Notes: a model not told the origin generated them from the letters alone. A DNA stretch of 64,000 nt from an uncultured Klebsiella sp. (GCA_964478755.1 CAYZJP010000003.1:7477-71476); one strand, 5' to 3'. Shown: positions 2,681 to 64,000, counted from the first letter of the stretch. Translations and numbers: made by a program.

Positions 2681-3802
2681 TCAGCGTTGCATCCGCCCTG
2701 CTTCGCGTTGAAAGAATTCCAGCCAGCCCAGCGTGATCGCATCTCCGATGGTGTTGGACTTGCGCAGTTCGCTGGGTGGCTTGCCCCAGTAGAAACCAAT
2801 CCAACCGGATGCGATGGCGCGGGACTCCGTGATGAACTGGCCGAATTCCGGGAACCCAGCTTGCAGTGGGAAGGCTTCCTCGATGACCACGGGCTTGCCC
2901 ACGGCGAAACCGCGCAGCGTCTCAATGGCCTTCGGCACTTCGCCTTTCTTCGGATAGAGGTGCACGCAGAGGAAGTCGAGGTCAGCGACGATTTTGTCCG
3001 GCACGAAGCCGCTGCGCAGGCCGGGCCGGTCTAGGCTCCAGTCCACGAGGCCGACAGTGACGAGATGCTTCGCGTCATGCTGGCGGATGGCTTTGGTTAG
3101 CGTGCGAATCCACGCGCTCGCGACGGTGTGCGGGACACGGCCGGTGGCGTCGAGTGTGATGACTTGGACAAAGTGTTTCCCGGCGAATGCAGGACCAAGC
3201 CAGTCGCCGGCCTTGCGCGGCCCGCCCGCGACGACCGGCTCGTTCATCAAGTCGTAGCAGAAGACAGCGGGGCTTTCCTTGCACTGCTTCGCGATGGTGG
3301 CCCAGAAATTCGCCTGCGCGGCCCAGCGTGACTTTTCGTCGAGCGCGTCATACCACGACGGCACGTCGGCCTTGTGGTAGCAGCCGAGGCCGGTGAGGTC
3401 CAGATGCAGACCGGTGCGCTCGGCGAGGGCAAGAAGCTTGGCGAGTTGCTTGAGCGACGTGCCGTTCGGCTGGTTCGTCGCATCCATGAACCTGCCGAAC
3501 TGGAGATGAATCCGCACGACGTTCGCACCGAGCTCCTTCATCTCGCGGAAGTCCGCCTCCACCTTCGGCCATTCGGTGAGCCAGTAGTCTTCAAGCAGCC
3601 GGCCGGTCTCGTCGTGGTCGTAGTTGAAGCCCCACGGGACGAAGGGCTTTCCGGACGCCGCGAGCGTGAAGCCTTTGCTGTCCTTGCTGGCCTGAATCCA
3701 ATCCAACGCGCTCGCCGCAATGCAGGCGAAGGCAAGGCCCAGCCCGGCGAGCCAGATGGCGGCGATCCGAATGCGGTGGTTCAAATTCATGGTGTTGCTC
3801 AC
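2681..3802 (-). CDS. glycoside hydrolase family 5-like (cellulase/mannanase type), secreted
   Basis: Signal peptide IAAIWLAGLGLAFACIAASA. NVVRIHLQF. The clan GH-A acid/base motif DLMNEP and the nucleophile region VVIEEAFP. The start is GTG at 3802 (4-nt overlap with the mnmE stop) or ATG at 3790. Confidence 0.7.
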   Translation of the reverse strand: MSNTMNLNHRIRIAAIWLAGLGLAFACIAASALDWIQASKDSKGFTLAASGKPFVPWGFNYDHDETGRLLEDYWLTEWPKVEADFREMKELGANVVRIHLQFGRFMDATNQPNGTSLKQLAKLLALAERTGLHLDLTGLGCYHKADVPSWYDALDEKSRWAAQANFWATIAKQCKESPAVFCYDLMNEPVVAGGPRKAGDWLGPAFAGKHFVQVITLDATGRVPHTVASAWIRTLTKAIRQHDAKHLVTVGLVDWSLDRPGLRSGFVPDKIVADLDFLCVHLYPKKGEVPKAIETLRGFAVGKPVVIEEAFPLQAGFPEFGQFITESRAIASGWIGFYWGKPPSELRKSNTIGDAITLGWLEFFQREAGRMQR

Positions 3803-5361
3803 TTTCCTATGCAGAACTGGCTAAAGATCGAGTCGAGCAAATCCTCCGTTGTCGTCCTGCCGACGATTTCGCCGACGGCGTTGACCGCGATGCGGAGATC
3901 CATTGCGACCAATTCCAACGAGGCTTCCGTGCGCAAGGCTTCCGCCGTCCGCAGCGTGGCGGCGCGCGCGCGCTGCAAGGCGTCCTGATGGCGTGAGTTG
4001 ATCATCACTTGCAGCATCTCGGCCTTGATCTCGCCCGCCCAGACGGCTCGCTTGATCGCGTCCTTGAGGGCTTCGAGGCCGGAGCCGGTGAGACACGACA
4101 CTTCAACGAAACGGCTGTCGGATTCGGATGCGGGATTTGGCCGAGCGAGCCGTTCCCCCTCACTCCTGCCCTTTCCCTCCGGGAGAGGGAGAGCCGCACC
4201 CAGCGCTGGGCTGGAGCCGGACACGTTCGGATGATCAGGAGCTGGACTGACTTTCTCCCTCTCCCTCCGGGAGAGGGCAGGGGTGAGGGGAAAGGCGTGG
4301 AACTTGCACAGAATCGCCTCACCGAGCCGATGAGGCAAATCTGCCTTGTTCAAAACGAGAATGCGTTTCTTCCCGGCGAACTCCACGAGGAATTGTTCAT
4401 CCTCCGCCGAGAGTGGTTCGCTCGCGTCGAGGACGTGGAGAATCAATTCAGCCTTGGCCACCATCGCGCGTGTGCGGCGGATGCCTTCCTGCTCGATGGC
4501 GTCGCGCGATTCGCGCAGGCCCGCCGTGTCCACGAACACGACGGGGAGGCCACGGATGTTCGCGGTTTCCTCGATGGTGTCGCGCGTGGTGCCAGCGACG
4601 GGCGAGACGATGGCGCGGTCGTGGCCGAGGAGCTGGTTGAGCAGCGAGGACTTGCCCGCGTTGGGCCGGCCGATGATCGCCGCGCGAATGCCGTGCCGAA
4701 GGATTTGTCCCTCGTCCGCCGTGCGTAACAGCTCGTCCATGAAGGCGACGCCGCGCTCCAGCTTCGCCAGCAACTGCCCGCGCGTGTCTGGCGCGATGTC
4801 CTCGTCCGGGAAGTCAATGTGCGCCTCGACGTGCGCGAGCACGCGCAGCAGGTCGTCGCGGAGCCGGTGGATGCGCTGGGAAAGTTTTCCAGTGAGCTGC
4901 TCGCCCGCCGCCGTGAGCGCAAGTTCGGTGCGTGCGCGAATGAGGTCGGCCACGGCCTCGGCCTGCGCGAGGTCGAGCCGGCCGTTGAGGAAGGCGCGCT
5001 GCGTGAACTCGCCCGGCTCGGCCAGCCGCGCACCGGCAGCGAGCAGCGCGTCGAGCACGAGCTTCGCGGGCAGCAGGCCGCCGTGGCAGGAAATCTCCAC
5101 CGTGTCCTCGCGCGTGAACGTGCGTGGCGCGCGCAGCACGGTGAGCAGCACTTCGTCAACGAACCGTCCGTCGCGCTCGATGCGCCCGTAATGCACCGTG
5201 TGCGACGCGGCGACGCTGGGTTTCTGCGAACTCTTGCCGACGGGCACGAACATCTTGTCCGCCACTGCGAGCGCCTGCGGCCCGGACACGCGCAGCACAG
5301 CGAGGCCGCCTTCCCCGAGCGGCGTGGCGGTGGCGGCGATGGTGTCGGAGAGGGAACTCAC
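3799..5361 (-). CDS. mnmE: tRNA modification GTPase MnmE (TrmE) with a ~65-70 aa repeat-derived insertion in the G domain
   Basis: N-terminus DTIAATATPLGEGGLAVLRVSG. G1 GRPNAGKS, TTRD, G3 DTAG, G4 NKAD. Diagnostic C-terminus FCIGK. The ORF is 520 aa, against ~450 aa for typical MnmE. Confidence 0.93.
   Translation of the reverse strand: MSSLSDTIAATATPLGEGGLAVLRVSGPQALAVADKMFVPVGKSSQKPSVAASHTVHYGRIERDGRFVDEVLLTVLRAPRTFTREDTVEISCHGGLLPAKLVLDALLAAGARLAEPGEFTQRAFLNGRLDLAQAEAVADLIRARTELALTAAGEQLTGKLSQRIHRLRDDLLRVLAHVEAHIDFPDEDIAPDTRGQLLAKLERGVAFMDELLRTADEGQILRHGIRAAIIGRPNAGKSSLLNQLLGHDRAIVSPVAGTTRDTIEETANIRGLPVVFVDTAGLRESRDAIEQEGIRRTRAMVAKAELILHVLDASEPLSAEDEQFLVEFAGKKRILVLNKADLPHRLGEAILCKFHAFPLTPALSRREREKVSPAPDHPNVSGSSPALGAALPLPEGKGRSEGERLARPNPASESDSRFVEVSCLTGSGLEALKDAIKRAVWAGEIKAEMLQVMINSRHQDALQRARAATLRTAEALRTEASLELVAMDLRIAVNAVGEIVGRTTTEDLLDSIFSQFCIGK
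4155..4295. repeat. family A palindromic element (CCCCTCAC..CCCTCTCCC-loop-GGGAGAGGG ... GGGAGAGGGC.GGGGTGAGGGG), intragenic copy in mnmE
   Basis: Left arm ccccctcactcctgccctttccctccgggagagggagag and right arm ctctccctccgggagagggcaggggtgagggg are inverted. Translated in frame as [14 protein letters not shown]...LPLPEGKGRSEGE. Confidence 0.85.
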
Positions 5362-10082: not shown

Positions 10083-10200
10083 GCGGAGAACCGACGGGAG
10101 GCAAGTCGCAGTTAATCAGCCGATCTCCGTTTCGGCTCGCGGCCACATTTTGCATTGCGCTTCGCCCGGCAGACTGGCAGCAACTCCGCGACACCGCGCC

Positions 10201-11706
10201 ATGACCGAACCGAACGAGCCTTCACCCCGCCCCGGCCAGCTCGTGCCCACGCTCGGACTTTTCACCACGGTCATGATCGTGGTCGGCGGCGTCATCGGCT
10301 CGGGCATCTTCCGCAAGCCGGGTGTCATGGCCGGACAGCTCGGCTCGACGGAGCTGCTGCTCGCGGTGTGGGTGCTCGCGGGCGTCATCACGCTCTTCGG
10401 CGCGCTCACCAACGCGGAGATTTCCAGCTTCATCACCGAGACCGGCGGGCAATACGTCTTCTTCGAGCGCATGTATGGCCCGTTCACCGCGTTCATCTTC
10501 GGCTGGGCGGTCTTCGCGGTCATCCAGACCGGCAGCATCGCGGCGCTGGCGTATGTGTTCGCCGAATATTTCACCAAGCTCCAACCCTTGCCCGAACTCA
10601 GCAGCGCGGCGGCAAGCTGGTCGTTCCACGTCCCCTTCATTGGCGACATCGCGCCGCTGCGGGAGTTCGGCGTGAAGTGCCTCGCGTCGTTTGTGATCGT
10701 CGTGCTGACGGTGGTGAACTACCTCGGCGTGCGCTTCGGCGGCCTCGTGCAAAACATCTTCACCGTCGCGAAGCTCGGCGGGATGGCGGCGTTGTTCCTC
10801 GCGGCGTTCCTCGTGCCCAGCGCGGGCGGCAGCATGAAGAACTTGTCCACGACCGTGCCGGCGTTGCAGAAGCACGGCTTCGAACTCGTCGTCGCCATCG
10901 CGGCCGCGCTGCAAGGCGCGTTCTGGGCCTATGACGGCTGGGTGAAGACAACCTTCTGCGCCGGCGAAGTCCGCGACCCGCAGCGCAACGTGCCGAGCGC
11001 GACGGTGCTGGGAATGTTCATCGTCACCGGCATCTATCTCGGGCTGACGCTGGCCTACTGCTGGGTGCTGCCGGCGGAACTCATGGCGCAGTCCAAACTC
11101 GTCGCCGCCGACGTGGCCGAGCGCGTGATGAACGGCGGCGGCAAGTGGATCGCCGTCGTCGTGATGTGCTCCACGTTCGGAGCGAACAATGCGACCATCC
11201 TCGCCAGCGCGCGGGTTTATTTCACGATGGCGCAGCGCAACCTCTTTCCCGCGCTGCTGGGCCGGGTGCATCCGCGCTACCACACGCCGGCGGCGTCGCT
11301 CGTGGTGCAGGGGCTGTGGAGCATCGCGCTGGTGTTCAGCGGCACGTTCGATCAGCTCACCGACACACTCATCTTCGTGAGCTGGATTTTTTACGGCCTC
11401 GGTGCCTACGGCGTCTTCGTCCTGCGCCGCAAGGAGCCGGACGCGCCGCGCCCCTACAAAGTGCCGGGCTATCCGTGGGTGCCGGGAATCTTCGTCGCGT
11501 TCTCCGCGGTGTTCCTCGTGCTCACGATGGTGAACGACGTGAACGCCTATCGCGCCGCAGTCGCCGCCGGGAAACCCGCCGTCATCAACTTCGCGCTCGG
11601 CACCGCGCTCGTCGTCATGGGCGTGCCGATTTATTTCTTCTACCGGAAGCGAAACGGTCCTCCACTCCCTCTCCCTTCATCGGATGAGGGGAGAGGGCCG
11701 GGGTGA
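10201..11706 (+). CDS. APC-superfamily amino acid permease
   Basis: About 12 TM helices. N-terminal LGLFTTVMIVVGGVIGSGIF motif, and later FWAYDGW. ATG at 10201 is chosen because the upstream 46 codons are Arg-rich and overlap the neighbouring gene. The last ~15 codons and the stop lie inside a family A repeat. Confidence 0.85.
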   Translation: MTEPNEPSPRPGQLVPTLGLFTTVMIVVGGVIGSGIFRKPGVMAGQLGSTELLLAVWVLAGVITLFGALTNAEISSFITETGGQYVFFERMYGPFTAFIFGWAVFAVIQTGSIAALAYVFAEYFTKLQPLPELSSAAASWSFHVPFIGDIAPLREFGVKCLASFVIVVLTVVNYLGVRFGGLVQNIFTVAKLGGMAALFLAAFLVPSAGGSMKNLSTTVPALQKHGFELVVAIAAALQGAFWAYDGWVKTTFCAGEVRDPQRNVPSATVLGMFIVTGIYLGLTLAYCWVLPAELMAQSKLVAADVAERVMNGGGKWIAVVVMCSTFGANNATILASARVYFTMAQRNLFPALLGRVHPRYHTPAASLVVQGLWSIALVFSGTFDQLTDTLIFVSWIFYGLGAYGVFVLRRKEPDAPRPYKVPGYPWVPGIFVAFSAVFLVLTMVNDVNAYRAAVAAGKPAVINFALGTALVVMGVPIYFFYRKRNGPPLPLPSSDEGRGPG

Positions 11707-11791
11707 GGGGTTCTGCGTGTCGGCGCAAGTGGCCGCACCCCTCATCCGGCCTGCGGCCACCTTCTCCCCTCGCTCCGCGAAGGGAGAAGGC
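11661..11791. repeat. family A palindromic element (two half-units in inward orientation)
   Basis: ctccctctcccttcatcggatgaggggagagggccggggtgagggg ... cacccctcatccggcc...ccttctcccctcgctccgcgaagggagaagg. It overlaps the permease 3' end. Confidence 0.8.
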
Positions 11792-36957: not shown

Positions 36958-37105
36958 TTTTAGCCACGGATGAAACACGGATTAAACACGGAGAGAATAC
37001 AAGCTAAACGCGGAGATGCGTTCAGTCATGCTCGCATTCGATTCTCCGGCGTGCCGACCTCACCTTTCATCCGTGTTTCGTCAGTGTTTCATCCGTGGCT
37101 AAAAA
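36958..37105. repeat. family B inverted-repeat element filling the intergenic gap
   Basis: tagccacggatgaaacacggattaaacacgg - about 80 nt - ccgtgtttcgtcagtgtttcatccgtggctaaaaatc. The arms are reverse complements. Confidence 0.85.
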
Positions 37106-41239: not shown

Positions 41240-41425
41240 GCCCCGCAGGGGCTGCAACAAACCAGCCCAGGGCAACGCCCTGGGTTATGGTCGTCCAAAA
41301 TCCACCAAGCCCTGAAAGGGCGGCACAAACGGCGTGGTTGTTTCGCCCTTTCAGGGCTTGGGAACATTTTTGAAACCACGTTCCTGGGGCGTTGCCCCAG
41401 GCTGGTTTGTCATGCGCCTTTGGCG
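41240..41425. repeat. family C REP doublet (inverted pair, centre near 41330)
   Basis: aaaccagcccagggcaacgccctggg...aagccctgaaagggcggcacaaac | gttgtttcgccctttcagggctt...ccaggggcgttgccccaggctggttt read as reverse complements. Confidence 0.85.
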
Positions 41426-41967: not shown

Positions 41968-42268
41968 TCGGCTTGTTTCGCCCTTTCAGGGCTCGTTGCA
42001 ATTCTGATCCGTTGACCCAGGGCGATGCCCTGGGCTGGTTTGTCTCTGCCCCTTCGGGGCGCAGCAGCGGCGACAGTTCAGGACATCGCTCACTATTAGC
42101 TCACTGGCGAAACGGCCCTTCGACAATCCAAAGCGGGACATCGACACTCTTGTAGGTGTTCGAACGAACGGGATTTCTGGCCCGAAGGGCCTCAACAGAC
42201 CAGCCCAGGGCAACGCCCTGGGAGAGATCCGCCACACAGTTGGCCAGCCCTGAAAGGGCGGAACATTT
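41968..42268. repeat. family C REP units (inverted pair separated by ~100 nt)
   Basis: 41968-42066 gcttgtttcgccctttcagggc...cccagggcgatgccctgggctggtttgtctctgccccttcggggc. 42170-42268 ggcccgaagggcc...accagcccagggcaacgccctggg...gccagccctgaaagggcggaac. Confidence 0.8.
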
Positions 42269-46430: not shown

Positions 46431-49400
46431 TTGAGTGCCTGCAAATCACATTTGCTGTTCGCGCGCGTGACGGTGGTCGCTGCCGTCCTGTTCGGCATCG
46501 TTGTCATCACAGCAAAGGCCGCTGACCGAGCCGAGGCTGATCTGGAACGCCGGTTCACTGGCACTGTCCGACCGTTCGTCGAGGCTTACTGCGTCTCGTG
46601 CCACGGCAAGGAGAAGCCCAAGGCGCAGTTCGACCTCAGCCCATTCTCCACGATGGCGGCAGTCACGCAGGATCACGCGCGCTGGGCGCTGGTGCTGGAC
46701 AAACTTTCTGCAAAAGAGATGCCGCCAGAAGAGGCAAAGAAGCATCCCGCGCCGAAGCAGCGCGATGAAGTCATCGCATGGATTCAGGCGCTGCGCCGGC
46801 ACGAGGCGGAGAAGCACGCGGGCGATCCCGGCCCGGTGCTGGCGCGGCGGTTGAGCAACGCCGAATACGACTACACCATCCGCGACCTAACGGGCTTCGA
46901 CTTGCGCCCGACGCGTGAATTCCCCGTGGACCCGGCGAATCAGGCGGGCTTCGACAATTCCGGCGAATCACTTGCGATGTCGCCCGCGCTGTTGAAGAAA
47001 TATCTGCAAGCCGCGCGCTCGGTCGCCGATCATCTCGTGCTGAAGCCGGACGGCTTCGATTTCGCGCCGCACCCGGTCCTCGCGGAAACGGACCGCGACA
47101 AGTATTCCATCCTGCGCATCGTGGATTTTTACAAACGCCAGCCGACGGACTACGCGGATTATTTCCTCGCGGCGTGGCGTTACCAGCATCGCACCGAGCT
47201 GGGCAAACGCCGCGCCACACTCGCCGACTTCGCCGCCGAGGCGAGGATCAGCGCCAAGTATCTCGAACTTATTTGGGCCACGTTGACGGAGGCGAAGGAC
47301 ACGGTCGGCCCTGTCGCAAAGCTGCACGCGATGTGGCACGCATTGCCGAAGCCCGACGCGAAGCGCCCGGATGCCGCGCGCGACGGCTGCATCGAGATGC
47401 GTGACTTCGTCGGCGGCTTGCGTAGGAAACTGGAATGGAAATTCAAGAACCTTGAGCTCCGGGGCGTTTCCTCTGGCGGCCAGTGCTTCATCATGTGGAA
47501 GAACCGCCAATACGCGACGCATCGCCGGCTGCTGAATCCCGACACGCTGGAACTCGGCGGTGTAGTCAGGCCTGTCCCACCGCGAAAAAATGCGAAGGAC
47601 GAGGATGGTAATCCTGTGCCTGAACCAGTCGTGAACGGGCCAGACGCGGACCTGTTTGTCCCGGCGGACGAGCGCGCTCGCGCGCCTTACCTCGCGTCCT
47701 TCGAGCGATTCTGCAACGTGTTTCCCGACGCCTTCTACATCTCGGAACGCGGGCGGATGCACATGGAGCGGCCCAATGACAAAGGCCGCCTCCTGAGCGC
47801 GGGCTTTCACAACATGATGGGCTACTTCCGCGATGACGCGCCGCTCATGGAGTTGATTCTCGATGACGCGGGCCGTCGTGCGCTGGACCGCCTGTGGCTG
47901 GAGTTTGACTTCGTCGCGTTCGTGCCCGAGCGGCAGCACAAAGAGTTCATCTTCTACGAACGCGCCGAGTCCAAGACGATCAAGGGGCCGGAGTTCGACT
48001 TCGCGCGCTCCGAGGACAAGGACGTGACTTCGCCGGCAAAGCTCCAACGGCTCACCGACGTGTATCTCGCGATGGCGCGTGAAAGCCTGCAAAACAACGG
48101 CGGCCAGCCAATGGTGATTGATGCCATTGCGGACCATTTCAAAATCACCTCGGCCAATATCCGCGGCATCGAGCAGGTCCGCGCCACAGCAGAACCGACT
48201 CATCTCCCCTCGCTGCTGAAGTTCGCCGAACGCGCGTATCGTCGTCCGCTCGCGCAAACGGAACGTGATGAGCTTCTGGCGTTCTATCGTTCGCTGCGCG
48301 CGAAGGACGGGCTGAGTCACGAGGACGCGATTCGCGATTCGGTGGTGAGCGTGCTGATGTCGCCGCACTTCTGCTACCGAATTGATTCGCTCGAGGCCGC
48401 AGGCGCTTCCAAAAAAATCGGCGGGACCGGCCTGCCGGACACGCAGCTTAAAGTGCGGCCATTGTCCGACCACGCGCTCGCCAGCCGACTGAGCTACTTC
48501 CTTTGGTCGAGCATGCCGGATGAAGAACTGCTCGCCCGCGCTGCTGCCGGCGATTTGCACAAGCCCGAAGTGCTCGCCGCGCAGGCGAGACGTATGATGA
48601 AAGACGCGCGCATTCGCGGCCTCGCGGTGGAGTTCGGCGGTAACTGGCTCGACTTCCGCCGCTTCGAGGAACACAACGCCGTGGATCGCGAGCGCTTCCC
48701 CGGCTTCAACGATGAGTTGCGCTCGGCGATGTTCGAGGAGCCGGTGCGCTTCATGTTGGATGTCGTGCAGGAAAACCATTCCGTGCTGGAGTTCCTTTAC
48801 GCGAAGCACACGTTCGTCAATGCACCGCTCGCGAAGCACTACGGCATGACTGAAGCGTTTTCTTCATTAGAAAACAAATCCGTCACCAACCTTCGGCAGT
48901 CCAAGGAGCGCGGCATTTATGCCGCTTCGACAATCTCGGGCGCTGTGACACTGAAGCGGCCTGAAGGCCGCGCTCCACTTGCAGGAGATGAGCCTTCAGC
49001 CGCCAGCAACTGGCTCCGCATCAATGACGCCGACCGTTACGAGCGCGGCGGCATTCTGCCGATGGCCGTGTTCCAGACCAAGAACGCGCCCGGCCTGCGC
49101 ACCAGCCCGGTCAAGCGGGGCTATTGGGTCGTGCGCCGCGTGCTCGGCGAGCAAATCCCGCCGCCGCCGCCGGTCGTGCCGGAGCTGCCGCATGACGAGG
49201 CAAAGCTGGACCTGCCGCTGCGCGACGTGCTCGCAAAACACCGCGAGGACAAATCCTGCGCCGCGTGCCACGCGCGCTTCGACTCGTTCGGACTCGTGTT
49301 TGAAAACTACGGTCCTGTCGGTGAGCGGCGCGAAAAGGATTTGGGCGGTCGGCCGGTGGACACGCGCGCGACCTTCCCCGGCGGCAGCGAACGGACGGGC

Positions 49401-49643
49401 TTGGACGGTCTGCGCGCCTACATCCGCGAGCGGCGCCAAGACGACTTCCTCGACAACCTCTCCCGCAAGCTGCTAGGCTACGCATTAGGTCGCAGCCTTA
49501 TGCTCTCTGACGATGTCACGATCCGCGAGATGCGCGCGAAGCTCGCCGCGAACGGCTTCCGCTTCGGCAGCCTCGTCGAAGGCATCGTCACGAGTCCGCA
49601 GTTCTGCAACAAACGTGCTCCTGATGAACTCGCCCAGGAATAA
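46431..49643 (+). CDS. second DUF1587/92/95/88/85-type protein (1070 aa) with cytochrome-c-like CxxCH motifs
   Basis: AYCVSCHGKEKPKAQFDLS, EMPPEEAKKHP, SRLSYFLWSSMPDEELL, TSPVKRGYWVVRRVLGEQIPPPPP, CAACHARFDSFGLVFENYGPVGERR. The start is uncertain (TTG 46431, TTG 46452 or GTG 46467). Confidence 0.85.
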   Translation: MSACKSHLLFARVTVVAAVLFGIVVITAKAADRAEADLERRFTGTVRPFVEAYCVSCHGKEKPKAQFDLSPFSTMAAVTQDHARWALVLDKLSAKEMPPEEAKKHPAPKQRDEVIAWIQALRRHEAEKHAGDPGPVLARRLSNAEYDYTIRDLTGFDLRPTREFPVDPANQAGFDNSGESLAMSPALLKKYLQAARSVADHLVLKPDGFDFAPHPVLAETDRDKYSILRIVDFYKRQPTDYADYFLAAWRYQHRTELGKRRATLADFAAEARISAKYLELIWATLTEAKDTVGPVAKLHAMWHALPKPDAKRPDAARDGCIEMRDFVGGLRRKLEWKFKNLELRGVSSGGQCFIMWKNRQYATHRRLLNPDTLELGGVVRPVPPRKNAKDEDGNPVPEPVVNGPDADLFVPADERARAPYLASFERFCNVFPDAFYISERGRMHMERPNDKGRLLSAGFHNMMGYFRDDAPLMELILDDAGRRALDRLWLEFDFVAFVPERQHKEFIFYERAESKTIKGPEFDFARSEDKDVTSPAKLQRLTDVYLAMARESLQNNGGQPMVIDAIADHFKITSANIRGIEQVRATAEPTHLPSLLKFAERAYRRPLAQTERDELLAFYRSLRAKDGLSHEDAIRDSVVSVLMSPHFCYRIDSLEAAGASKKIGGTGLPDTQLKVRPLSDHALASRLSYFLWSSMPDEELLARAAAGDLHKPEVLAAQARRMMKDARIRGLAVEFGGNWLDFRRFEEHNAVDRERFPGFNDELRSAMFEEPVRFMLDVVQENHSVLEFLYAKHTFVNAPLAKHYGMTEAFSSLENKSVTNLRQSKERGIYAASTISGAVTLKRPEGRAPLAGDEPSAASNWLRINDADRYERGGILPMAVFQTKNAPGLRTSPVKRGYWVVRRVLGEQIPPPPPVVPELPHDEAKLDLPLRDVLAKHREDKSCAACHARFDSFGLVFENYGPVGERREKDLGGRPVDTRATFPGGSERTGLDGLRAYIRERRQDDFLDNLSRKLLGYALGRSLMLSDDVTIREMRAKLAANGFRFGSLVEGIVTSPQFCNKRAPDELAQE

Positions 49644-54560: not shown

Positions 54561-54601
54561 CATTGGCGGTTTGCAGGGGAGGCCACCCCATCGCCGCTCC
54601 G

Positions 54602-54715
54602 GAGCAGTAATTCAGTGCTCCCAAGCGGTGGTTGAGTGCTTCTGAGCAGTAATCCAGTGCTCCCGACCACTGCACTCCTGCTTCCGAGCTGTGGCTGAGT
54701 GCTCCCGAGCACTGA
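54602..54715. repeat. degenerate ~42-bp tandem repeat
   Basis: gagcagtaattcagtgctccc... at 54602 and gagcagtaatccagtgctccc... at 54644, with a partial third unit gagctgtggctgagtgctcccgagcactg. Confidence 0.6.
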
Positions 54716-55036: not shown

Positions 55037-55111
55037 GGTGAAAAGCGAAAACTCACCTACCCCGCCTCGTGCGACAGAATTCGCCAGTGCATCGTCACGC
55101 GGCCGCGCGTT

Positions 55112-55247
55112 CTCCCTCACCCCTGCCCTCTCCCGCTGGGAGAGGGAGGACGTTCGACTGCGGGGGGCGTTGCGCGGCGCGCTCCCGGAGATGACGCGTC
55201 CCGGCCCGCTCCCCTCTCCCAGCGGGAGAGGGAAAGGGTGAGGGAGA
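55112..55247. repeat. family A palindromic element, intergenic copy
   Basis: ctccctcacccctgccctctcccgctgggagagggagg ... ctcccctctcccagcgggagagggaaagggtgagggag. Confidence 0.85.
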
Positions 55248-55297
55248 AAAGCGACGAAGCTTTTGAGGTTTGAGAGTTCACGGGCCGGTTCGTGGAT

Positions 55298-56685: not shown

Positions 56686-56784
56686 AGCGAGTGAGGTCGA
56701 GCGTAGTCACCAGCAAGGAAGCTGGAAGGAGAAAATTTGCCCCCGCTTGCCTCTCGCTGCTCCCTCTCCTACCTTCCGCGCCGC

Positions 56785-59700
56785 ATGTCGAAGAAGCCGC
56801 CGCCGTCTGCCAGTGTCATCCGCCTCCACGGCGTGCGGCACAACAACCTCAAGGGCTTCGACCTCGACCTCCCGCTCGGCAAGCTCATCGTCGTCACCGG
56901 CCTGAGTGGGTCCGGCAAAAGCTCGCTCGCCTTCGACACGCTCTACGCCGAGGGCCAGCGGCGCTACATCGAGACCTTCTCGCCCTACGCGCGGCAGTTC
57001 TTCGACCGCATGGACAAGCCGCGGGTGGACAGCATCGAGGGCATCCCGCCGGCCATCGCCATCGAGCAGCGCAACGCCGTCCGCACCACGCGCAGCACCG
57101 TCGGCACGATGACGGAGATTTGCGATCACCTGAAAATCCTCTGGCCGCATCTCGCGACGTTGCATTGCCGGAAGTGCGGCAAGCCCGTGGAGAAAGAGCC
57201 GCCGCAGAAGGTTTGGGAGCGGGTGAATGCGGAACACGGAATGCGGAATGCGGAATGTCTGGTGACGTTCGACCTCGCGCTTTCCGAAAAGCTCGCGCTC
57301 AAGGAATCCCTCGACCTCATCGCCAGGCAGGGCTACCAGCGGCTTCTCCTCAATGGCGAAATGGTCCGCCTCGACGACGCGCTCGTGAAACTACGGAGCG
57401 CCGAGCATCGCTCGGCAGGAGCGGACGAGCACACCACGGCCGAGCAATGCCCGGCGCTCCGACGAGGCCTTGCCGCACTCACCATTGTCCAAGACCGCCT
57501 CAAGCTCGCCGCCGCCAGCCGCGCCCGTTTCATCGAAGCCTGCGAGCAGGCCTACCACTTCGGCAAAGGGAAACTCGCGATTTACGACGTGTCGAACGAT
57601 CCGGCCATTCCGCACTCCGCACTCCACACTCCGCATTTCTTCTCCAACCGTTTCCACTGCGCGCAGTGCGATCTCGATTATCGCGAGCCTTCCCCCGCGC
57701 TCTTCTCGTTCAACCACCCCGTCGGCGCGTGTCCGGCGTGCAAGGGCTTCGGGCGCGTCATAGGCATTGACTATGAGCTGGCGATTCCCGACCGCTCGAT
57801 CTCAATCAAGGCTGGCGCGGTGAAGCCGTGGCGCACCGGCACCGGCGCGGAGTCGCTGGCCGACCTCGCGAAGTTCTGCAAGAAACTCGGCGTGCCGATG
57901 GACGTGCCGTTCCGCGATTTGAGCGAAGCGCACCAACGCTGGGTCATCGACGGCGACCCCGGCTACGACTCGAACGATCCCGCGAACTCGTGGCCAAAGA
58001 AGTGGTATGGCGTGAAAGGCTACTTCCGCTGGCTGGAGAGCAAGAGCTACAAGATGCACGTGCGCGTGCTGCTCTCGCGCTACCGCAGCTACACGCGCTG
58101 CCCCGCGTGCGAGGGGAAGCGCCTTCAGCCGGAAAGTCTTTTGTATCGCGTCGAAGTGCCAAGTCTCACCGGTTTGTCTGCTGACACTCTCCCCCTCACC
58201 CCGGCCCTCTCCCGCTGGGAGAGGGAGACACGCAGTCCGCGTCTTGCCGAATCGAAGCGCCCCGCACAGACACCGCCGCTAGCTGCGTCATTCGGTTCTC
58301 ATGCAACCGCGCCTTCAACTAGGGGCACAAGCCTGCAACTAACGCTGACTGCCATTCCCCCTCTCCCAGCGGGAGAGGGCCGGGGTGAGGGAGAACGGCC
58401 CGTTCAGTTGACACTGGCGGACTTCTACTCCCTCTCCGTGAGCCGCGCCCTCGCTGTCATCACCGCGTTGCACGAGCGCCTCTTTCCCATCTCCCATCTC
58501 CCATCTCCTATCTCCTCCGCCTCCCCGCTCGCTCACGCGCTCGAAGAAGTCCGCTCCCGCCTTGCCTACCTCGTCGAGGTCGGCCTCGGCTACCTCACGC
58601 TCGACCGCGCCACGCGCACGCTTTCCGGCGGCGAGACCGAGCGCGTAAATCTCACCACCTGTCTCGGCACGCGCCTCGTCAACACCCTCTACGTCCTCGA
58701 CGAGCCGAGCGTGGGCCTGCACCCGCGCGACACCGCGCGCCTCGTCGTCATTCTCCAACGCCTGCGCGATCTTGGGAACACCGTCATCGTCGTCGAACAC
58801 GAAGCCGCCGTGATGCGCGCCGCCGACCAGATCGTGGACCTCGGCCCCGGCCACGGAGAGACCGGCGGTGAACTCGTCTTTCAAGGCACGCTCGCGGAAC
58901 TTCTCCGCCATCCCGTCTCGCTCACTGGGCAATACCTGAGCGGGCGAAAGATGGTCGAAGAACGGAATCCGAGGCCGGTGGAGTTGCGCGGAGCCGCGTC
59001 GTCGAACAACGCCACGTTCCCCCTCACCCCGGCCCTCTCCCCAAGGGAGAGGGAGGAGCGCAGCCCGCGTCCTGGCGAGTCCATGGCCGTCCGAAGTCAG
59101 AGCAGCACAGCTTCGCGCGAAACGCGGACTGCCATTCCCCCTCTCCCCCAGGGAGAGGGCCGGGGTGAGGGGAAAGGAATCGCCCAGCATTCTGATGGTA
59201 GAGAACCATCTACGAACTCCCCCGCTCACTTTCTCACCCTCTCCGGCGCCTCCGCCCACAATCTCAAAAACCTCACCGTCTCCATTCCGCTTGGCCGCTT
59301 CGTCTGCCTCACCGGCGTGAGCGGCTCCGGGAAGTCCACGCTCGTCCGCGACTGCCTGCTGCCAGCGCTCGCCTCGGTGCTCAAAGTCGCCGAAACTCAG
59401 GCGCTACCAGGTGAAACGGACGACAAAGTGACCAAGACAGACATCAAACCAAGTGGGCAGGAGGTGAAACTGATTGGGTTTGATGTGAAACAGATTCAGT
59501 CGGACGTGAAACCTAGTGGGTCTGACATTAAACTAAGTGGGTCTGACGTTAAACTTAGTGGGTCTGGCAATAAAGTTTATGAATCTGGCGTTCAATTCAG
59601 TGACTTGAATGCCAAAGTTGACGACTCTGGCGTCAAACCAAGCGACTTTGACGAGCCATCCGGTGAGTTTGTCCAGCCCGGCACCGCCCGCGTCATCGGA

Positions 59701-60687
59701 GCCGGGCACTTGAGCCGGTTTATCCTCGTGGACCAGACGCCGCTGGGCAAAACGCCGCGCTCCACCCCCGCCGTTTACATCGGAGCCTTCGATGACTTGC
59801 GCGAAGTCTTCGCCCAGACGGAACTCGCCAGGCAGCGCGGCCTGAACAGCAGCGCCTTCAGCTTCAACTCCGCCGCCGGCCAGTGCGACCGCTGCCGGGG
59901 CGCGGGCTTCGAGAAGATTGAAATGCAGTTCCTCAGCGACGTGTTCATCAAGTGCCCCGCGTGCGAGGGACGGCGCTATCGGGAGCACATTCTGGAGGTG
60001 AAGGTGGAGGTTCAAGCTTCAAGGTTTCAGGTTTCAGGAGCCGGGACTTCCGCGGGCCGACCGCACGCGAAGGCATCCGTCTCCACCTTGAACCTTGAAC
60101 CTGAAACCTTGAACCTGTCCTGGAGCATCGCCGACCTCCTCGCCGCCAGCGTGGATGAATCCCTCGCCTTCCTCGCCGCGCTGCCGGACTCCAAACCCGC
60201 CCAGCGCGCCGCCGCCGCGCTGCGCGTGTTGCAGGAAGTCGGCCTCGGCTACCTGCGCCTCGGCCAGCCGATCAACACCTTGAGTGGCGGCGAGAGCCAG
60301 CGGCTGAAACTCGCGGCGCACCTCGCTGAAGCAAGCAGTCGAGAGTCGAGAGTCGAGAGCCGAGAGCCGGAAGCAGCCGCCGTAGCACAGCCCTCGACCC
60401 TCGACCCTCGACTCTCGACCCTCTTCGTCTTCGACGAGCCGACGACTGGCCTGCACTTCGAGGACGTGCGCGTGCTCGTCGCCGTCTTCCAGCGGCTCGT
60501 GGACGCGGGCCATACCGTCCTCGTCATCGAGCACAACCTCGATGTGATCCGCGCCGCCGACTGGTTGATTGACCTCGGCCCCGAAGCGGGCGCCGCCGGC
60601 GGCGAACTCGTCATCGCCGGCACACCGGAGGAGGTGGCGAAGTGCGAGCGCAGCCACACTGGCCGCTTTCTGCGGGACGCGCTTTAG
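56785..60687 (+). CDS. UvrA-family ABC ATPase (excinuclease subunit A or paralogue) expanded by multiple in-frame repeat insertions
   Basis: [14 protein letters not shown], Walker [32 protein letters not shown], Zn-module CxxC pairs, [25 protein letters not shown]. Second half: [62 protein letters not shown] at 56785 (MSKKPPP) is preferred over the track start at 56737. Confidence 0.85.
58189..58393. repeat. family A palindromic element, intragenic (UvrA-family ORF)
   Basis: ctccccctcaccccggccctctcccgctgggagagggag ... gactgccattccccctctcccagcgggagagggccggggtgaggg. Translated as [13 protein letters not shown]...[14 protein letters not shown]. Confidence 0.88.
59019..59175. repeat. family A palindromic element, second intragenic copy in the same ORF
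   Basis: ttccccctcaccccggccctctccccaagggagagggagg ... gactgccattccccctctcccccagggagagggccggggtgagggg. Translated as [13 protein letters not shown]...[14 protein letters not shown]. Confidence 0.88.
59440..59670. repeat. AT-rich 21-bp tandem array (~10-11 units) inside the UvrA-family ORF
   Basis: Units such as gacatcaaaccaagtgggcag / gacgtgaaacctagtgggtct / gacattaaactaagtgggtct / gacgttaaacttagtgggtct / ggcgtcaaaccaagcgacttt. They encode the heptads [70 protein letters not shown]. Confidence 0.85.
60008..60116. repeat. hairpin whose arms are heptamer tandem repeats (GGTTCAA/GGTTTCA vs CCTTGAA/CCTGAAA)
   Basis: aggttcaagcttcaaggtttcaggtttcagg - about 47 nt - ccttgaaccttgaacctgaaaccttgaacctg. 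Confidence 0.8.
60338..60423. repeat. hairpin whose arms are heptamer tandem repeats (GTCGAGA vs CCCTCGA)
   Basis: gtcgagagtcgagagtcgagagccgagagccgg - about 21 nt - ccctcgaccctcgaccctcgactctcgaccctc. Confidence 0.8.
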
Positions 60688-61832
60688 GGCACGATCTCCA
60701 CCGCGTAAAAGCCCGCGCTGCCCGTCGGCGTGTTGGTGAGGCTGACGGTGTTCCAGCCGGAGAGGACCGTGCTGGAAAGCGCAGTCCAGTTGGTGGCGTT
60801 CACACCATTGGTCAGCGTGCCAGTGAAGCGGAGGCGATACCTCGCGTTCAAGATGCCGGTGGTGGTGACGATGTGGTTGCCGCCGCTGGCAGCGATGGAG
60901 AGGAGGCGCGGGCGTGCCGGGGTGAAGCCCATGTCGTAAAGCATCCCGCGTTCGAGCGCGACGAGCGCGACCTGCGCTTTCACGCCTGCCGCATCGCGCG
61001 GCAGCAGGAGCAGGCCGAATGGATCGAAGGTCGTGGTGTCCAGATGGGCGATGCTCGACCCGGACGAGTAAGGATTCACGGCGTAAAGTTTGGGCCGCAC
61101 ACCAGCGTTGCCCGCCGCGCCGAGCGGGCCGTTCCAGAACAGGTTGTTGTTCGTGATGGCCACAAGCCGCTGGGCGTCGGTCATGCCTGCGTAAGACACC
61201 GGGTTGCTGTTGTCCTGGACAATGAAGGTGTCATACACGGTGGGGTTCCCGTCGAACGAGCCGTTGGCGGGGTTGATGTAGTTGATGAAGCCGATGCCGT
61301 GGACCAGTTCATGCACGATGGTCGTGAAGAGGCTTTCGAGTCCGCTGCCCACCGCAGAGGAGTCGTTGGTGTTGTAATTGTAGCTGATGGCCGCGTTGAC
61401 ATTGAAGTTCACGGCCAGCGTGTTCGTGGCAAACAGCTCGCGGCCGGCAACGTGGTTGGCGAGCGTCCAAGTGTAGTCCACGTTGGGCAGGTATTTCGGG
61501 TTCGTGCTGCCGAAGTTGTTCGTGTAGCCGGCCGTGCCGCCGTTGCCCACCGTCGTGGTGCCGAGGTTGGTGAAGGCCGCCTTCACGCGGATGACCTCGG
61601 TGACATACGCCTGCGAGAAGAGACTGCCCACGTAGTTCGCTGAGGCGGTGAAGACGGCCCGGCGCAGCTCGCCAATCGAGCCATAGCCCGGCTGCGGCGA
61701 GGCGGCCGGGTCGTAGAAGCCGACATTGTTCGCCTGGTCGTAGGACCAGTCCGGGATGATGGGAATCTGCGCGCGAAGTGAAATCGCCTGGAACACGACG
61801 AGCAGGGCGAGTGTTTGGAAAATCTTTTTCAC
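60684..61832 (-). CDS. secreted protein with HExxH zinc-metalloprotease-like motif
   Basis: GTG at 61832 gives the signal peptide MKKIFQTLALLVVFQAISLRAQ. TTIVHELVHGIGF. Only the 3' third of the 1013-aa track ORF is coding. The stop overlaps the UvrA-family stop (TTAG). Confidence 0.65.
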   Translation of the reverse strand: MKKIFQTLALLVVFQAISLRAQIPIIPDWSYDQANNVGFYDPAASPQPGYGSIGELRRAVFTASANYVGSLFSQAYVTEVIRVKAAFTNLGTTTVGNGGTAGYTNNFGSTNPKYLPNVDYTWTLANHVAGRELFATNTLAVNFNVNAAISYNYNTNDSSAVGSGLESLFTTIVHELVHGIGFINYINPANGSFDGNPTVYDTFIVQDNSNPVSYAGMTDAQRLVAITNNNLFWNGPLGAAGNAGVRPKLYAVNPYSSGSSIAHLDTTTFDPFGLLLLPRDAAGVKAQVALVALERGMLYDMGFTPARPRLLSIAASGGNHIVTTTGILNARYRLRFTGTLTNGVNATNWTALSSTVLSGWNTVSLTNTPTGSAGFYAVEIVP

Positions 61833-61928
61833 CGGGCTGGAAATACAGGAACCAAACAGGGCTGACAAGTGCCAACCGGCAGTTTTAAGAGCCTTGGTTC
61901 CGCGCGCCGCATCGCGCATGATGCGCGG

Positions 61929-64000
61929 GTGTTCGCCGGCTCTGAACAAAACACCGCCACGCCTGACGCCATCTGCATCCACGGCGCGCGGCACCACAAC
62001 CTGAAGAACTTCTCGCTCGCGGTTCCGCGCGGGCGGTTCGTGGTCGTCACCGGCGTGAGCGGCAGCGGCAAGAGCACGCTCGCCTTCGACCTCATTTTCG
62101 CCGAGGGCCAGCGGCGCTTCCTCGACGCCATGAACGCCTACGCGCGGCAGTTCGTGGAGCAGATGGCCCGGCCCGACGTGGACCTCATCACCGGCATCCC
62201 GCCCACCGTCAGCATCGAGCAGCGCAACTCGCGCGGCGGCGGCAAGTCCACCGTCGCCACCGTCACGGAGATTCACCATTTCCTGCGCCTGCTCTTCGCG
62301 AAGCTCGGCACGCAGTTCTGCCCGACGTGCAACGTGCCCGTCACCGGCCAGACTCGCGACGCGCTCGCGGCGAACTTGCGGAGCGAACTCAAGCGTCGCG
62401 GCGACCTGCTGCTGCTCGCGCCCGTGGTGAAAAACCGCAAGGGTTTCCACAGCGAAGTCGCGACATGGGCCGCGCAGAACGGCTTTGCCGAACTCCGCGC
62501 CGACGGAAAGATGTTCCGCACGGACGAACCGTTCCGCCTCGACCGCTTCAAGGAGCACGACGTGGAAATCGTGGTCGGCGTTGCTGAAGCAGGTAGGGCG
62601 CGCAGTCCTCTGCGCGCCGCTTCCCGTGAATCCACCAGCGGCGCGCACGGAGTGACGCGCCCTACCAGCCTGAATGAGCTTGCGGACACCGCCCTCCAGC
62701 TCGGCCACGGCACGCTCTACGCGCTGGACAACCACCGCCAGCTCACCGTCCACAGCACGGAACGCGCGTGCCCGTCGTGCCACACCAGCTTCGCGCCGCT
62801 CGATCCGAAGAATTTTTCCTACAACTCCGCGCAGGGCTGGTGTCCGAAGTGCCGCGGCTTCGGCGAACTCTTTTACATCCCCGATGTCGAGCGCGGCGCG
62901 AACGCTGGCTCCATCGAAGAAAGCTGGTGGAGCTGGGCGCAGGAGCGCGAGCAATGTCCTGAATGCCACGGCGCGCGGCTGAATGCCGTGACACGCGCGG
63001 TGCGCCTTGCAGTTGGAGCGCCGAATTCCAATTCGGCGAAGACTCAATCGCACCGTCGTGCCGAACCGGAGTTCGGCGCTCCGACGATTGATTTCTTCTC
63101 CGCCGCGAACGTGGACGCCGCGCTCGCTTACTTCTCCACGCTGAAGCTCACCGGGCGCGACGCGGACATCGCGCGCGACATTCTCCCGGAGATTCGCGAG
63201 CGCCTGAAATTCCTGAGCGAAGTCGGCCTCGGCTATCTCCAGCTTGGTCGCAGCGCGCCGACGCTCTCCGGCGGCGAGGCGCAGCGGATGCGGCTGGCCG
63301 CGCAGCTCGGCTCGAACTTGAGCGGCGTGCTCTACGTGCTCGACGAGCCGACCATCGGCCTGCACGCGCGCGACAACGCGCTGCTGCTCCGCGCGCTCAA
63401 AAAACTTCAGTCGCGCGGCAATTCGCTGCTCGTGGTCGAGCACGACGAGGACACGATGCGCCATGCGGACTGGGTGATTGACCTCGGTCCCGGCGCGGGC
63501 GTGAAGGGCGGCGAAGTCATCGCCAGCGGCACGTTGAACGAATTGCTGCGGCACAAGGAATCCATCACCGGCCAGCAGCTTCGCGCGCAGGCGGCGAAAA
63601 AATATCCGAGCCGGGGCGAGCGGCGCGTTGTGGAGTGCGGTGACTTGCCACCGCACTCCGAAAGCACGCACTGGCTTACGTTGACCAATGCGAGCACGCA
63701 CAACTTGAAGAATCTCACCGTCCATTTTCCACTAAACCGATTCGTTGCCGTCACTGGCGTGAGCGGTTCCGGCAAGAGCACGTTGATTCGCGAGTGTTTA
63801 TTGCCTGTGGTGGAAGCGGCGTTGCCGAAGAAGCGGAGCGCCAAGCTCCGGCTTGGCAAGTCCGAGAATTTCTCCGCACCGCGCCGAATCGGAGTTCGGC
63901 GCTCCAAGGGCGAGTGCTTTGTCACCGGCGCGGAACATTTCTCCGCCGTCTATGAAGTTGACCAGTCGCCCATCGGCCGCACGCCGCGCAGCACGCCGGC
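61929..64000 (+). CDS. second UvrA-family ABC ATPase, 3'-partial (runs off the window; not in the supplied ORF track)
   Basis: Manual translation in frame 3: [86 protein letters not shown]...TEIHHFLRLLFAKLGTQFCPTC...LLLLAPVVKNRKGFH...CPSCHTSF...LSGGEAQRMRLAAQLG...LYVLDEPTIGLH...LVVEHDEDTM...[10 protein letters not shown]...VDQSPIGRTPRSTP. The frame opens after TGA at 61863. The start is GTG at 61929 or GTG at 61869. Confidence 0.85.
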   Translation, partial: MFAGSEQNTATPDAICIHGARHHNLKNFSLAVPRGRFVVVTGVSGSGKSTLAFDLIFAEGQRRFLDAMNAYARQFVEQMARPDVDLITGIPPTVSIEQRNSRGGGKSTVATVTEIHHFLRLLFAKLGTQFCPTCNVPVTGQTRDALAANLRSELKRRGDLLLLAPVVKNRKGFHSEVATWAAQNGFAELRADGKMFRTDEPFRLDRFKEHDVEIVVGVAEAGRARSPLRAASRESTSGAHGVTRPTSLNELADTALQLGHGTLYALDNHRQLTVHSTERACPSCHTSFAPLDPKNFSYNSAQGWCPKCRGFGELFYIPDVERGANAGSIEESWWSWAQEREQCPECHGARLNAVTRAVRLAVGAPNSNSAKTQSHRRAEPEFGAPTIDFFSAANVDAALAYFSTLKLTGRDADIARDILPEIRERLKFLSEVGLGYLQLGRSAPTLSGGEAQRMRLAAQLGSNLSGVLYVLDEPTIGLHARDNALLLRALKKLQSRGNSLLVVEHDEDTMRHADWVIDLGPGAGVKGGEVIASGTLNELLRHKESITGQQLRAQAAKKYPSRGERRVVECGDLPPHSESTHWLTLTNASTHNLKNLTVHFPLNRFVAVTGVSGSGKSTLIRECLLPVVEAALPKKRSAKLRLGKSENFSAPRRIGVRRSKGECFVTGAEHFSAVYEVDQSPIGRTPRSTP
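62592..62666. repeat. family D nested palindrome (75 nt), intragenic
   Basis: ggtagggcgcg-cagtcctc-tgcgcgccgct-tcccgtgaatccacc-agcggcgcgca-cggagtga-cgcgccctacc. Both the outer and inner arm pairs are perfect reverse complements. 75 nt equals 25 codons. Confidence 0.85.
63015..63082. repeat. family E double hairpin (GGAGCGCCGAA...TTCGGCGCTCC), intragenic
   Basis: ggagcgccgaattccaattcggcg ... gccgaaccggagttcggcgctcc. Confidence 0.8.
63881..63905. repeat. family E single hairpin, intragenic
   Basis: gcgccgaatcggagttcggcgctcc. The 23-mer gccgaaNcggagttcggcgctcc matches 63060-63082 with one mismatch. Confidence 0.75.

Follow-up and report, generated by a model that had tools for sequence, protein, structure and literature searches.

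The window analysed here is a stretch of 64,000 nucleotides (nt) read 5′ to 3′ on one strand (GCA_964478755.1 CAYZJP010000003.1:7477-71476; coordinates below are positions within it), and it contains an unusually long gene for the nucleotide excision repair protein UvrA, whose conserved blocks are separated by repeats and hairpins that stay in frame:

56785..60687, plus strand: coding sequence of uvrA (class I UvrA), 1300 codons and a stop, matching TIGR00630, with five colinear blocks on the UvrA of Bacillus stearothermophilus (Bst; 2r6f)

The open reading frame (ORF) ends at 60687 and could start either at a TTG at 56737, the longest option (1316 amino acids, aa), or at the ATG at 56785 (1300 aa), the latter being preferred because the N-termini of orthologues read MSKPPP... 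An earlier note on this DNA had claimed a single UvrA frame open for about 1300 codons, with conserved motifs colinear and in frame around the elements, and both points were borne out. In a profile search, the product scores 875.9 bits against TIGR00630 (cut-off 729.8), with a match split into six pieces, and 899 bits against NF001503, under the stricter cut-off of this model (1147), a shortfall that fits with inserts splitting the match into five to six pieces. Both the UvrB-binding domain (PF17760; 30.3 bits, cut-off 23.3) and the DNA-binding or insertion domain (PF17755; 46 bits, cut-off 23.2) are detected, two domains that class II UvrA proteins lack. The motifs of the two ATP-binding cassette (ABC) ATPase modules follow each other in one frame along the five blocks that align to the chain 2r6f_A, and those of either module (GLSGSGKSS/LSGGE/LDEPS and GVSGSGKST/LSGGE/FDEPT) are unchanged across 34 aligned UvrA sequences. 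The exact protein occurs in a single record of the protein collection, on an 89.7-kb NCBI contig, and the source names of its nearest relatives are Limisphaerales, Pedosphaera or Verrucomicrobia. The host, a verrucomicrobium by these names, is one of soil or fresh water. Judged from its sequence, the ORF 56785-60687 is an intact, functional-looking class I uvrA.

At least eight in-frame insertions had been described in this gene; all of those listed are present, and one additional hairpin brings the repeat and hairpin elements to ten in total. Among them are the following, where TRF stands for Tandem Repeats Finder:

57225..57257, plus strand: hept1, heptamer array (GAATGCG) x 4.7 of 33 nt (TRF), located in a UvrB-binding-domain loop, encoding an 11-aa peptide
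57394..57461, plus strand: hairpin with 23-nt arms (57394-57416 / 57439-57461), 91% complementary, -47.3 kcal/mol, z-score -7.1, encoding a 24-aa peptide
57606..57640, plus strand: hept2, heptamer array of the CATTCCG type, reverse complement of hept1 (TRF, 57609-57635, and inverted-repeat search), encoding an 11-aa peptide
58190..58394, plus strand: palA1, copy 1 of the family-A palindrome, which is MITE-like (MITE, miniature inverted-repeat transposable element), 205 nt, with 53-nt arms (58190-58242 / 58342-58394), 89% complementary
58485..58515, plus strand: hept3, heptamer array (TCCCATC) x 4.4 of 31 nt (TRF, 95% matches), encoding an 11-aa peptide
59017..59175, plus strand: palA2, copy 2 of the family-A palindrome, 159 nt (53 codons), with 54-nt arms (59017-59070 / 59122-59175), 83% complementary
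59440..59670, plus strand: AT-rich tandem array of about ten degenerate 21-bp (7-aa) units of the SDVKLSG type (TRF, 59454-59648)
60008..60116, plus strand: hp7a, hairpin with arms made of heptamer units (AGGTTTC / ACCTTGA) and a 47-nt spacer, arms 60008-60038 / 60086-60116 of 31 nt, 77% complementary
60338..60423, plus strand: hp7b, hairpin with arms made of heptamer units (AGTCGAG / CCCTCGA) and a 22-nt spacer, arms 60338-60367 / 60390-60419 of 30-33 nt, 87% complementary

Seven heptamer arrays of 30-35 nt can be counted in this uvrA; they contain 4-5 units each and in many cases deviate from perfect repetition (84-95% matches). The positions given for them by the earlier note stand, but not the clean five- and fourfold copy numbers, some units being degenerate. 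All the period-7 arrays of the window lie within the gene. The 21-bp array differs from the rest of uvrA in its GC content (0.42-0.49 vs 0.60-0.72 elsewhere). When compared with dinucleotide shuffles, the hairpins of the gene fold with z-scores from -3.4 to -11.9, the extremes being hp7a (-48 kcal/mol, z -3.4) and palA1 (-131 kcal/mol, z -11.9), with hp7b in between (-45.6 kcal/mol, z -4.5). The arrays hept1 and hept2 are also complementary to each other (57226-57262 / 57601-57637, 78%); they flank the coding segment for most of the UvrB-binding domain and pair in the minimum-energy fold of 57220-57645 (426 nt, z -5.9). Such a pairing is possibly coincidental, as both arrays are not consistently kept in orthologues. 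A search against Rfam gave no family in uvrA, the only match of the window being a tRNA elsewhere, and no internal terminators or promoters arising from the elements were found on the plus strand of the gene.

As the earlier note had proposed, the extra segments were mapped onto UvrA structures, and all of them fall between blocks aligned to the solved chains 2r6f, 3pih and 6n9l. Their counterparts in 2r6f_A are short:

aa 466-584: palA1 and hept3; 23 residues
aa 726-814: palA2; the 10-residue linker that joins the two ATPase halves (chain residues 617 / 628)
aa 880-963: 21-bp array; essentially nil
aa 1074-1113: hp7a; 4 residues (chain residues 795 / 800)
aa ~1185-1211: hp7b; a 3-residue loop from the signature helix to the Walker B strand in ATPase module II (864 / 868)

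For aa 800-1300, an alignment of 110 sequences yielded an AlphaFold model with a mean predicted local distance difference test (pLDDT) score of 74.8 and a predicted template modelling (pTM) score of 0.73; its core has pLDDT values of at least 90, and its best fold match is 2r6f_A (Foldseek E = 1e-34). In this model, the segment of the 21-bp array (aa 870-963) shows a pLDDT of about 30 (<50) and no secondary structure, whereas hp7a (aa 1087-1103) and hp7b (~aa 1192-1210) are modelled as coil with values below 50 and of about 50-64, respectively. The three elements are thus predicted as low-confidence loops on a confident core.

The gene was compared with 84 orthologues from Verrucomicrobiota (Limisphaerales/Pedosphaera-like), 33 of them close (74-78% identical, 1056-1196 aa) and 51 others, which are complete single-UvrA genes from species-representative genomes. 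The orthologues vary in length at about ten major sites, the same as those of the query, plus a few minor ones, and in a 52-sequence UvrA alignment the shortest inserts per site have 0-6 aa and the longest 22-106 aa. Almost every species has a different peptide at any one site, the inserts being non-homologous between the species available, and these peptides are mostly translated heptamer arrays or heptamer-armed hairpins, such as CSVFSNQCSVIS...PLNTDPLNTEHW, SAIGNRQSA, PDPRPQTLDP or SRITHHAS. Among the insert peptides of the query, that of hept1 is shared by 14 of the 84 orthologues, that of hept3 by eight (identical in P0084) and that of hept2 by four, and the hairpin 57394-57461 is missing from most of them but found in P0063 and P0084. 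None of the 84 has a counterpart of palA1, palA2, the 21-bp array, hp7a or hp7b, and the 21-bp unit occurs in none of the other 200 loci examined. Altogether, these comparisons indicate that the insert sites are ancestral permissive linkers of the verrucomicrobial clade, the contents of which turn over. As a separate observation, the uvrA frame is broken in L015 and L057 (also in L032 and L055), with homology continuing past the break, and L015 and L057 are long-read assemblies of metagenome-assembled genomes (MAGs).

Repeat misassembly, or a decaying pseudogene that is still open, could produce a gene of this kind, since the repeats are able in principle to mislead assemblers, the assembly is of the metagenome type and the exact protein is on record once. 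Such an artefact is nevertheless highly improbable: the arms (up to 55 nt) and the elements (up to 205 nt) are within or near read length, an open frame of 3.9 kb with all the catalytic motifs invariant would be unexpected for a pseudogene, and equivalent inserts are found at these positions across dozens of assemblies and projects that are independent of each other.

At the DNA level, the inserts carry a signature of their own. In the pooled insert DNA (243 segments, 16.4 kb), identity at lags of 7 and 14 nt is 0.348 and 0.320, respectively, the gene core giving 0.253 and 0.259; a 7-nt period is incompatible with selection at the protein level, which points to an origin of the inserts at the DNA level. 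Stable folding is also more frequent in the inserts, with z-scores under -3 in 14% of the orthologous inserts (median z -0.4) vs 1% of size-matched core segments. Strict period-7 arrays number 68 in 314 kb of uvrA vs 7 in 1009 kb of flanks (80 loci), a difference of about 31-fold (binomial p = 1e-34), and periods of 5, 6 and 8-11 are close to zero everywhere, in uvrA and flanks alike. Three of the seven flank arrays lie inside the adjoining uvrA2 paralogue and another one just 11 nt past the uvrA stop. The 68 arrays of uvrA genes use 47 distinct units, 55 of the arrays measure 25-35 nt, and one and the same unit (e.g. ACGCATC) may occupy uvrA sites that vary from genome to genome.

These arrays are read in a particular orientation. 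None of the 68 array units in uvrA genes contains a stop in the sense direction, vs 18 of 68 if they were inverted, and the sense peptides, in which S, R, P, H and T abound, exceed the antisense ones in hydrophilicity (mean hydropathy -1.04 vs -0.18, p = 4e-4). In the case of palA1, only one of the six frames is open, and this is the frame in use. Moreover, 7 and 3 have no common factor, so a heptamer array should give one cyclic heptapeptide whichever of its three codon phases is read, and a 33-nt module would keep the frame and yield the same harmless peptide at any landing phase because the phases are equivalent. These data support the notion that the elements have been filtered or built for translatability. 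The earlier note had offered either loop tolerance or a translatability bias, and both hold: the former is backed by the structure-aligned blocks and the pLDDT values, the latter by the lack of sense stops, the hydropathy and the ~33-nt modules.

Heptamer arrays are not restricted to uvrA. The 31-fold enrichment would suggest that they are uvrA-specific, an idea refuted by a metagenome scan, which detected an (AATCGGC)4 array in at least 120 metagenome contigs (loci L081-L200): none of these 120 contigs carries a UvrA homologue, and the hosts are varied. The excess of arrays in uvrA is a local hot spot, not specificity. Fifty-four of the (AATCGGC)4 arrays are embedded well within ORFs of at least 250 aa, and 40 of these are oriented so as to encode the hydrophilic cyclic peptide NRQSAIG. 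Pfam searches with 38 host ORFs identified Lhr, Mfd, UvrD, MutL (twice), DnaG, xanthine dehydrogenase, GcvP, HypF (twice) and MMPL, as well as ResB, alpha-2-macroglobulin, LeuRS, glycosyltransferases and the PSCyt/PSD1 proteins typical of the PVC (Planctomycetes-Verrucomicrobia-Chlamydiae) group. By context, 43 arrays are clearly coding and 18 likely non-coding. An inverted partner is present for only 13 of the 120.

The length of these arrays is 31-33 nt in 90 of 118 cases, and they start with (C)AAT and end with AAT(C) in a fixed phase. The module core reads AAT(CGGCAAT)4, with C or A as left neighbour (86%) and C or T as right neighbour (74%), and its outer flanks are unrelated, a pattern that is equal in coding and non-coding contexts; the comparison of flanks of the (AATCGGC) arrays revealed no target-site duplication. 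The narrow length and the fixed phase argue for a discrete unit of ~33 nt (11 codons) instead of an open-ended product of slippage. Arrays of other units occur on the same contigs at 0.107 per kb, and additional arrays are denser in the host ORFs (0.315 per kb) than elsewhere on these contigs (0.091 per kb), which indicates that array-rich genomes exist and that arrays cluster in particular host genes.

Some side observations touch the same module. Replication or repair proteins account for six of the ~29 annotated hosts of AATCGGC arrays (Lhr, Mfd, UvrD, MutL twice and DnaG) and may be over-represented. The Mfd protein of L197 also contains peptides from hairpins of the AGTCGAG/CCCTCGA type, which resemble hp7b. 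In L001, an (AATCGGC)4 module (7813-7843) directly follows the twin-arginine-like signal of a DUF1501-like protein encoded 2 kb upstream of uvrA, and the uvrA gene of this locus has the AATCGGC unit twice, which suggests genome-specific favoured units.

A repeat unit of seven nucleotides brings to mind the simple-sequence contingency loci of Haemophilus and Neisseria, which are phase-variable tracts (e.g. PMC12721329, PMC7157529). As in those loci, the unit is not divisible by 3 and lies in tandem within a coding sequence, so that gaining or losing a single unit would shift the frame. Heptamer arrays could then be phase-variation tracts or their scars, where shifts of 7 nt in either direction would disrupt uvrA and create a transient mutator, and a net change of 21 nt would restore the frame and leave arrays behind in repair genes. 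The concentration of arrays in uvrA and uvrA2, the share of replication and repair proteins among the AATCGGC hosts (6 of ~29) and the interrupted uvrA ORFs of other MAGs (L015, L057) agree with this scenario, which we still regard as distinctly improbable. Unlike contingency loci, the arrays have only 4-5 units, often imperfect (84-95% matches), and would be poor substrates for slippage; they come as quantal modules of fixed length and phase, non-coding DNA included, which is unlike a stepwise process; more than 118 unrelated sites share the AATCGGC unit, and many hosts have no part in repair. In addition, the interrupted ORFs come from long-read assemblies, which are prone to indel errors.

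The palindromes of family A are likewise dispersed. Five copies occur in the 64 kb of the window, three of them in frame (two in uvrA and one in mnmE), one across a stop codon and one intergenic:

4153..4293, minus strand: family-A element in mnmE/trmE (ORF 3799-5361, minus strand), 141 nt (47 codons), in frame, its peptide ending in LPLPEGKGRSEGE
11667-11790: partial family-A-like palindrome, which spans the stop of the permease-like ORF 10063-11706 and gives its last residues, ...PLPLPSSDEGRGPG, before the stop
55110..55248, no strand assigned: intergenic family-A element upstream of the uvrA neighbourhood, 139 nt

The elements measure 139-205 nt and have inverted ends (TTCCCCCTCACCCCGGCCCTCTCCC...) of 37-54 nt that are 83-95% complementary, and their terminal motif has nine matches in the window vs none in shuffled sequences. 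The mnmE gene, assigned by eye from its G-domain motifs and its C-terminal CIGK, reads its copy in the very same frame as both uvrA copies. No common direct repeat that could represent a target-site duplication was seen at the five copies, the ends of which are fuzzy by 2 nt in either direction.

A further case of the same phenomenon is seen in a second UvrA paralogue:

61929 (GTG; alternatively 61869)..64000, plus strand: 5′ part of uvrA2, which extends beyond the window

Two hairpins lie in frame in this gene, one with 33-nt arms (62589-62669) and one with 26-nt arms (63012-63085). The phenomenon is thus not limited to the uvrA ORF or to ABC ATPases, as it also affects mnmE, uvrA2 and many gene families elsewhere. 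As for the surroundings of uvrA2, an ORF of 1013 aa on the minus strand (60684-63725) is a chimera of a true secreted-protein gene (~60684-61900, minus strand) and the antisense of uvrA2, and in other genomes uvrA and uvrA2 are either adjacent or fused as 'double UvrA' proteins of ~2000 aa.

The dispersal of both element types also bears on the idea that the extra segments are ancestral, fast-evolving linkers whose repeats came about on the spot through local duplication. Each of the 84 orthologues carries additional residues at those same positions (1056-1196 aa vs the canonical ~940-950 aa), hept1, hept2 and hept3 are common to 4-14 of them, and the 21-bp array, unique to the query gene, looks locally expanded. 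As an account of the elements themselves, however, an origin in place is unlikely, given that family-A copies with the same termini exist elsewhere in the window, that heptamer modules of identical sequence sit at unrelated loci and genomes and that the same unit (ACGCATC) appears at different uvrA sites between genomes; moreover, palA1 and palA2 add 69 and 53 codons, respectively, and the linker flanks that remain match the linker lengths of the orthologues. Ancestral linkers, which the earlier note had named as the outcome that would speak against insertion, seem therefore to account for the sites, variable throughout the clade, but not for their contents, where five inserts lack any counterpart among the 84 orthologues.

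The most probable explanation is that several kinds of passenger repeats, either selfish or neutral, are kept in permissive loops as translatable sequences and turn over across the clade. The surface loops and interdomain linkers of uvrA would have been colonised by short DNA repeats of at least four kinds: (a) modules of ~31-33 nt with 4-5 heptamer units, similar to the short tandemly repeated repetitive (STRR) sequences of cyanobacteria, either alone or paired in inverted orientation into hairpins; (b) the MITE-like palindromes of family A, of 140-205 nt; (c) other small hairpins; and (d) one locally expanded 21-bp array. The elements would be transcribed and translated into extra loops, probably disordered and hydrophilic. 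Their persistence would depend on the tolerance of about ten UvrA positions to changes in length throughout the clade, and on a net length that is a multiple of 3 with no stop in the frame used. Gain, decay by point mutation and replacement would then lead to species-specific sequences at common sites. This explanation builds on the presence, in-frame status and loop position of the elements, on their clade-wide recurrence and turnover, on the quantal size of the modules and on the other gene families that host them; from these we infer the translation of the elements, their neutral or selfish nature and the rationale of frame independence.

Several points weigh against the passenger explanation. 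The query genome and nearly all its relatives are MAGs. The AlphaFold model of the N-terminal half, obtained with 26 close orthologues, had a mean pLDDT of 48.9 and was not used, so the placement of loops in that half comes from sequence alignment. The mobility of family A and of the heptamer modules is suggested by their dispersal, with no target-site duplication evident and a partner transposase unsought. Moreover, the flanks of uvrA, intergenic parts included, are nearly array-free; random insertion followed by a tolerance filter fits poorly because arrays should then be densest in intergenic DNA, unlike what is seen in these flanks, and tolerance alone leaves the uvrA hot spot unexplained. 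Finally, the hairpins of the query are far stabler than shuffled sequences and hept1 may pair with hept2 around the segment of the UvrB-binding domain. Together with the location of inserts at domain boundaries or linkers and the strong enrichment of arrays in uvrA with respect to its flanks, these last two features would be expected if hairpins and arrays were functional cis-elements, such as co-translational pause sites at domain boundaries, targets of RNases or small RNAs, or autoregulatory cruciforms, whose structure is under selection. Such a role seems improbable when the orthologues are considered, as only 14% of their inserts fold significantly (median z -0.4) and the sequence, and even the type of element, vary by species at each site. 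The low frequency of inverted partners (13 of 120 arrays), the lack of Rfam matches and of terminator-like sites on the plus strand of uvrA and the fact that dozens of unrelated genes, and non-coding DNA too, carry the same modules argue in the same direction.

A more specific proposal would be that the heptamer arrays form a distinct and undescribed class of ~33-nt elements, which encode a benign peptide independently of phase, are adapted to coding DNA and are made or inserted by a dedicated process. This process might have a mechanistic bias towards repair genes (uvrA, uvrA2, mfd, mutL, uvrD, lhr), with repeated inactivation and restoration of such genes as one conceivable route. We consider this proposal rather unlikely.

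The closest known cases are those suggested in the earlier note, namely the palindromic elements of Rickettsia and the STRR sequences of cyanobacteria. In the part of PMC10969869 that relates the work of Ogata et al. 2000, Rickettsia palindromic elements (RPEs) are described as sequences of ~100-150 bp, belonging to several families, which are inserted in frame in housekeeping genes, translated and compatible with protein folding. The family-A copies of uvrA (two) and mnmE are comparable, as multicopy palindromes in frame within genes. However, RPE hosts have reduced intracellular genomes, whereas the host here would be a free-living member of Verrucomicrobiota, and here one gene combines about ten elements, of four kinds or more, the 33-nt heptamer module being the dominant one, at sites that are reused throughout the clade with turnover. 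The likeness can be drawn in terms of behaviour only, a kinship in sequence not being expected, and membership of the RPE families is not claimed.

In the case of the cyanobacterial STRR sequences, the units are CCCCAGT (STRR1), TTGGTCA and CAACAGT. Mazel et al. 1990 are said to have described them as dispersed heptanucleotide repeats of several unit types and of unknown origin. None of these units is among the 47 units of the uvrA arrays, the nearest being CCCCAGA vs CCCCAGT. STRR sequences have also served as targets for fingerprinting (PMC5088731). Like them, the arrays reported here are made of tandem heptanucleotide units of several types at many loci (68 arrays with 47 units in uvrA genes); unlike them, they occur in another phylum, are quantal (~4.4 units, 31-33 nt, fixed phase), lie in frame in conserved genes to a large extent and often form paired hairpin arms. 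From their sequences, the heptamer arrays would be better regarded as STRR-like than classed as STRR. Bacterial MITEs and intragenic small mobile sequences include ERIC, RU-1/2/3, BOX and Nezha (PMC10969869, PMC2759123, PMC3184786). Family A is similar to them in its terminal inverted repeats, its multiple copies and its presence both between genes and inside genes with open frames, but it shows no detected target-site duplication and reaches an unusually high density in a single gene. A literature search, which did not cover all journals, found nothing on heptamer arrays of Verrucomicrobia, on uvrA genes with such inserts or on the sequence of the module.

Palindromes and repeats of other families are found in the rest of the window:

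48905-48976: hairpin of a different family with 24-nt arms, 88% complementary, in frame in the ORF 46431-49643 (plus strand), encoding the peptide ERGIYAAS...KRPEGRAP

This ORF corresponds to a large exported protein of 1071 aa, of the planctomycete-cytochrome type by eye, and a peptide of the KRPEGRAP type recurs in a uvrA insert of L049. Between two plus-strand ORFs, a hairpin at 36958-37104 has arms of tandem 11-mers (CACGGATGAAA / TTTCATCAGTG; 35 nt, 91% complementary), an architecture like that of the heptamer-armed hairpins, with a period of 11 nt instead. Another palindromic family, with ACAAACCAGCCCAGGGCAACGCCC arms that are 92-93% complementary, has two copies (41257-41410 and 42016-42222), which flank a small ORF and are placed either upstream of an ankyrin-repeat ORF or inside its 5′ end. 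Finally, a second 21-bp tandem array, unrelated to that of uvrA, is located at 54596-54666, where a small ORF upstream of the uvrA region carries, at its 3′ end, 3.4 copies of GCTCCCGAGCAGTAATTCAGT (68% matches).

The main interest of these elements lies in the clade-wide reuse of sites with turnover of their contents, in the presence of ten of them in an essential-looking repair gene and in the discrete, frame-neutral character of the 33-nt modules. If the passenger explanation is true, selfish DNA located within genes that encode proteins, best known from Rickettsia, would also be rampant in free-living Verrucomicrobiota of the Limisphaerales/Pedosphaera type. The inserts would draw a natural map of tolerance in UvrA, with about ten positions that accept 10-100 residues, which could be of use in protein engineering and in the reading of UvrA structures. 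In practical terms, they split profile matches (six pieces here), inflate protein length and may mislead both annotation and the homology-based binning of MAGs. Moreover, the quantal 33-nt modules would offer a handle on how heptanucleotide repeats of the STRR type arise and spread, and they lead to the testable idea that repeats with a period that is not a multiple of 3 may be translatable in any frame.

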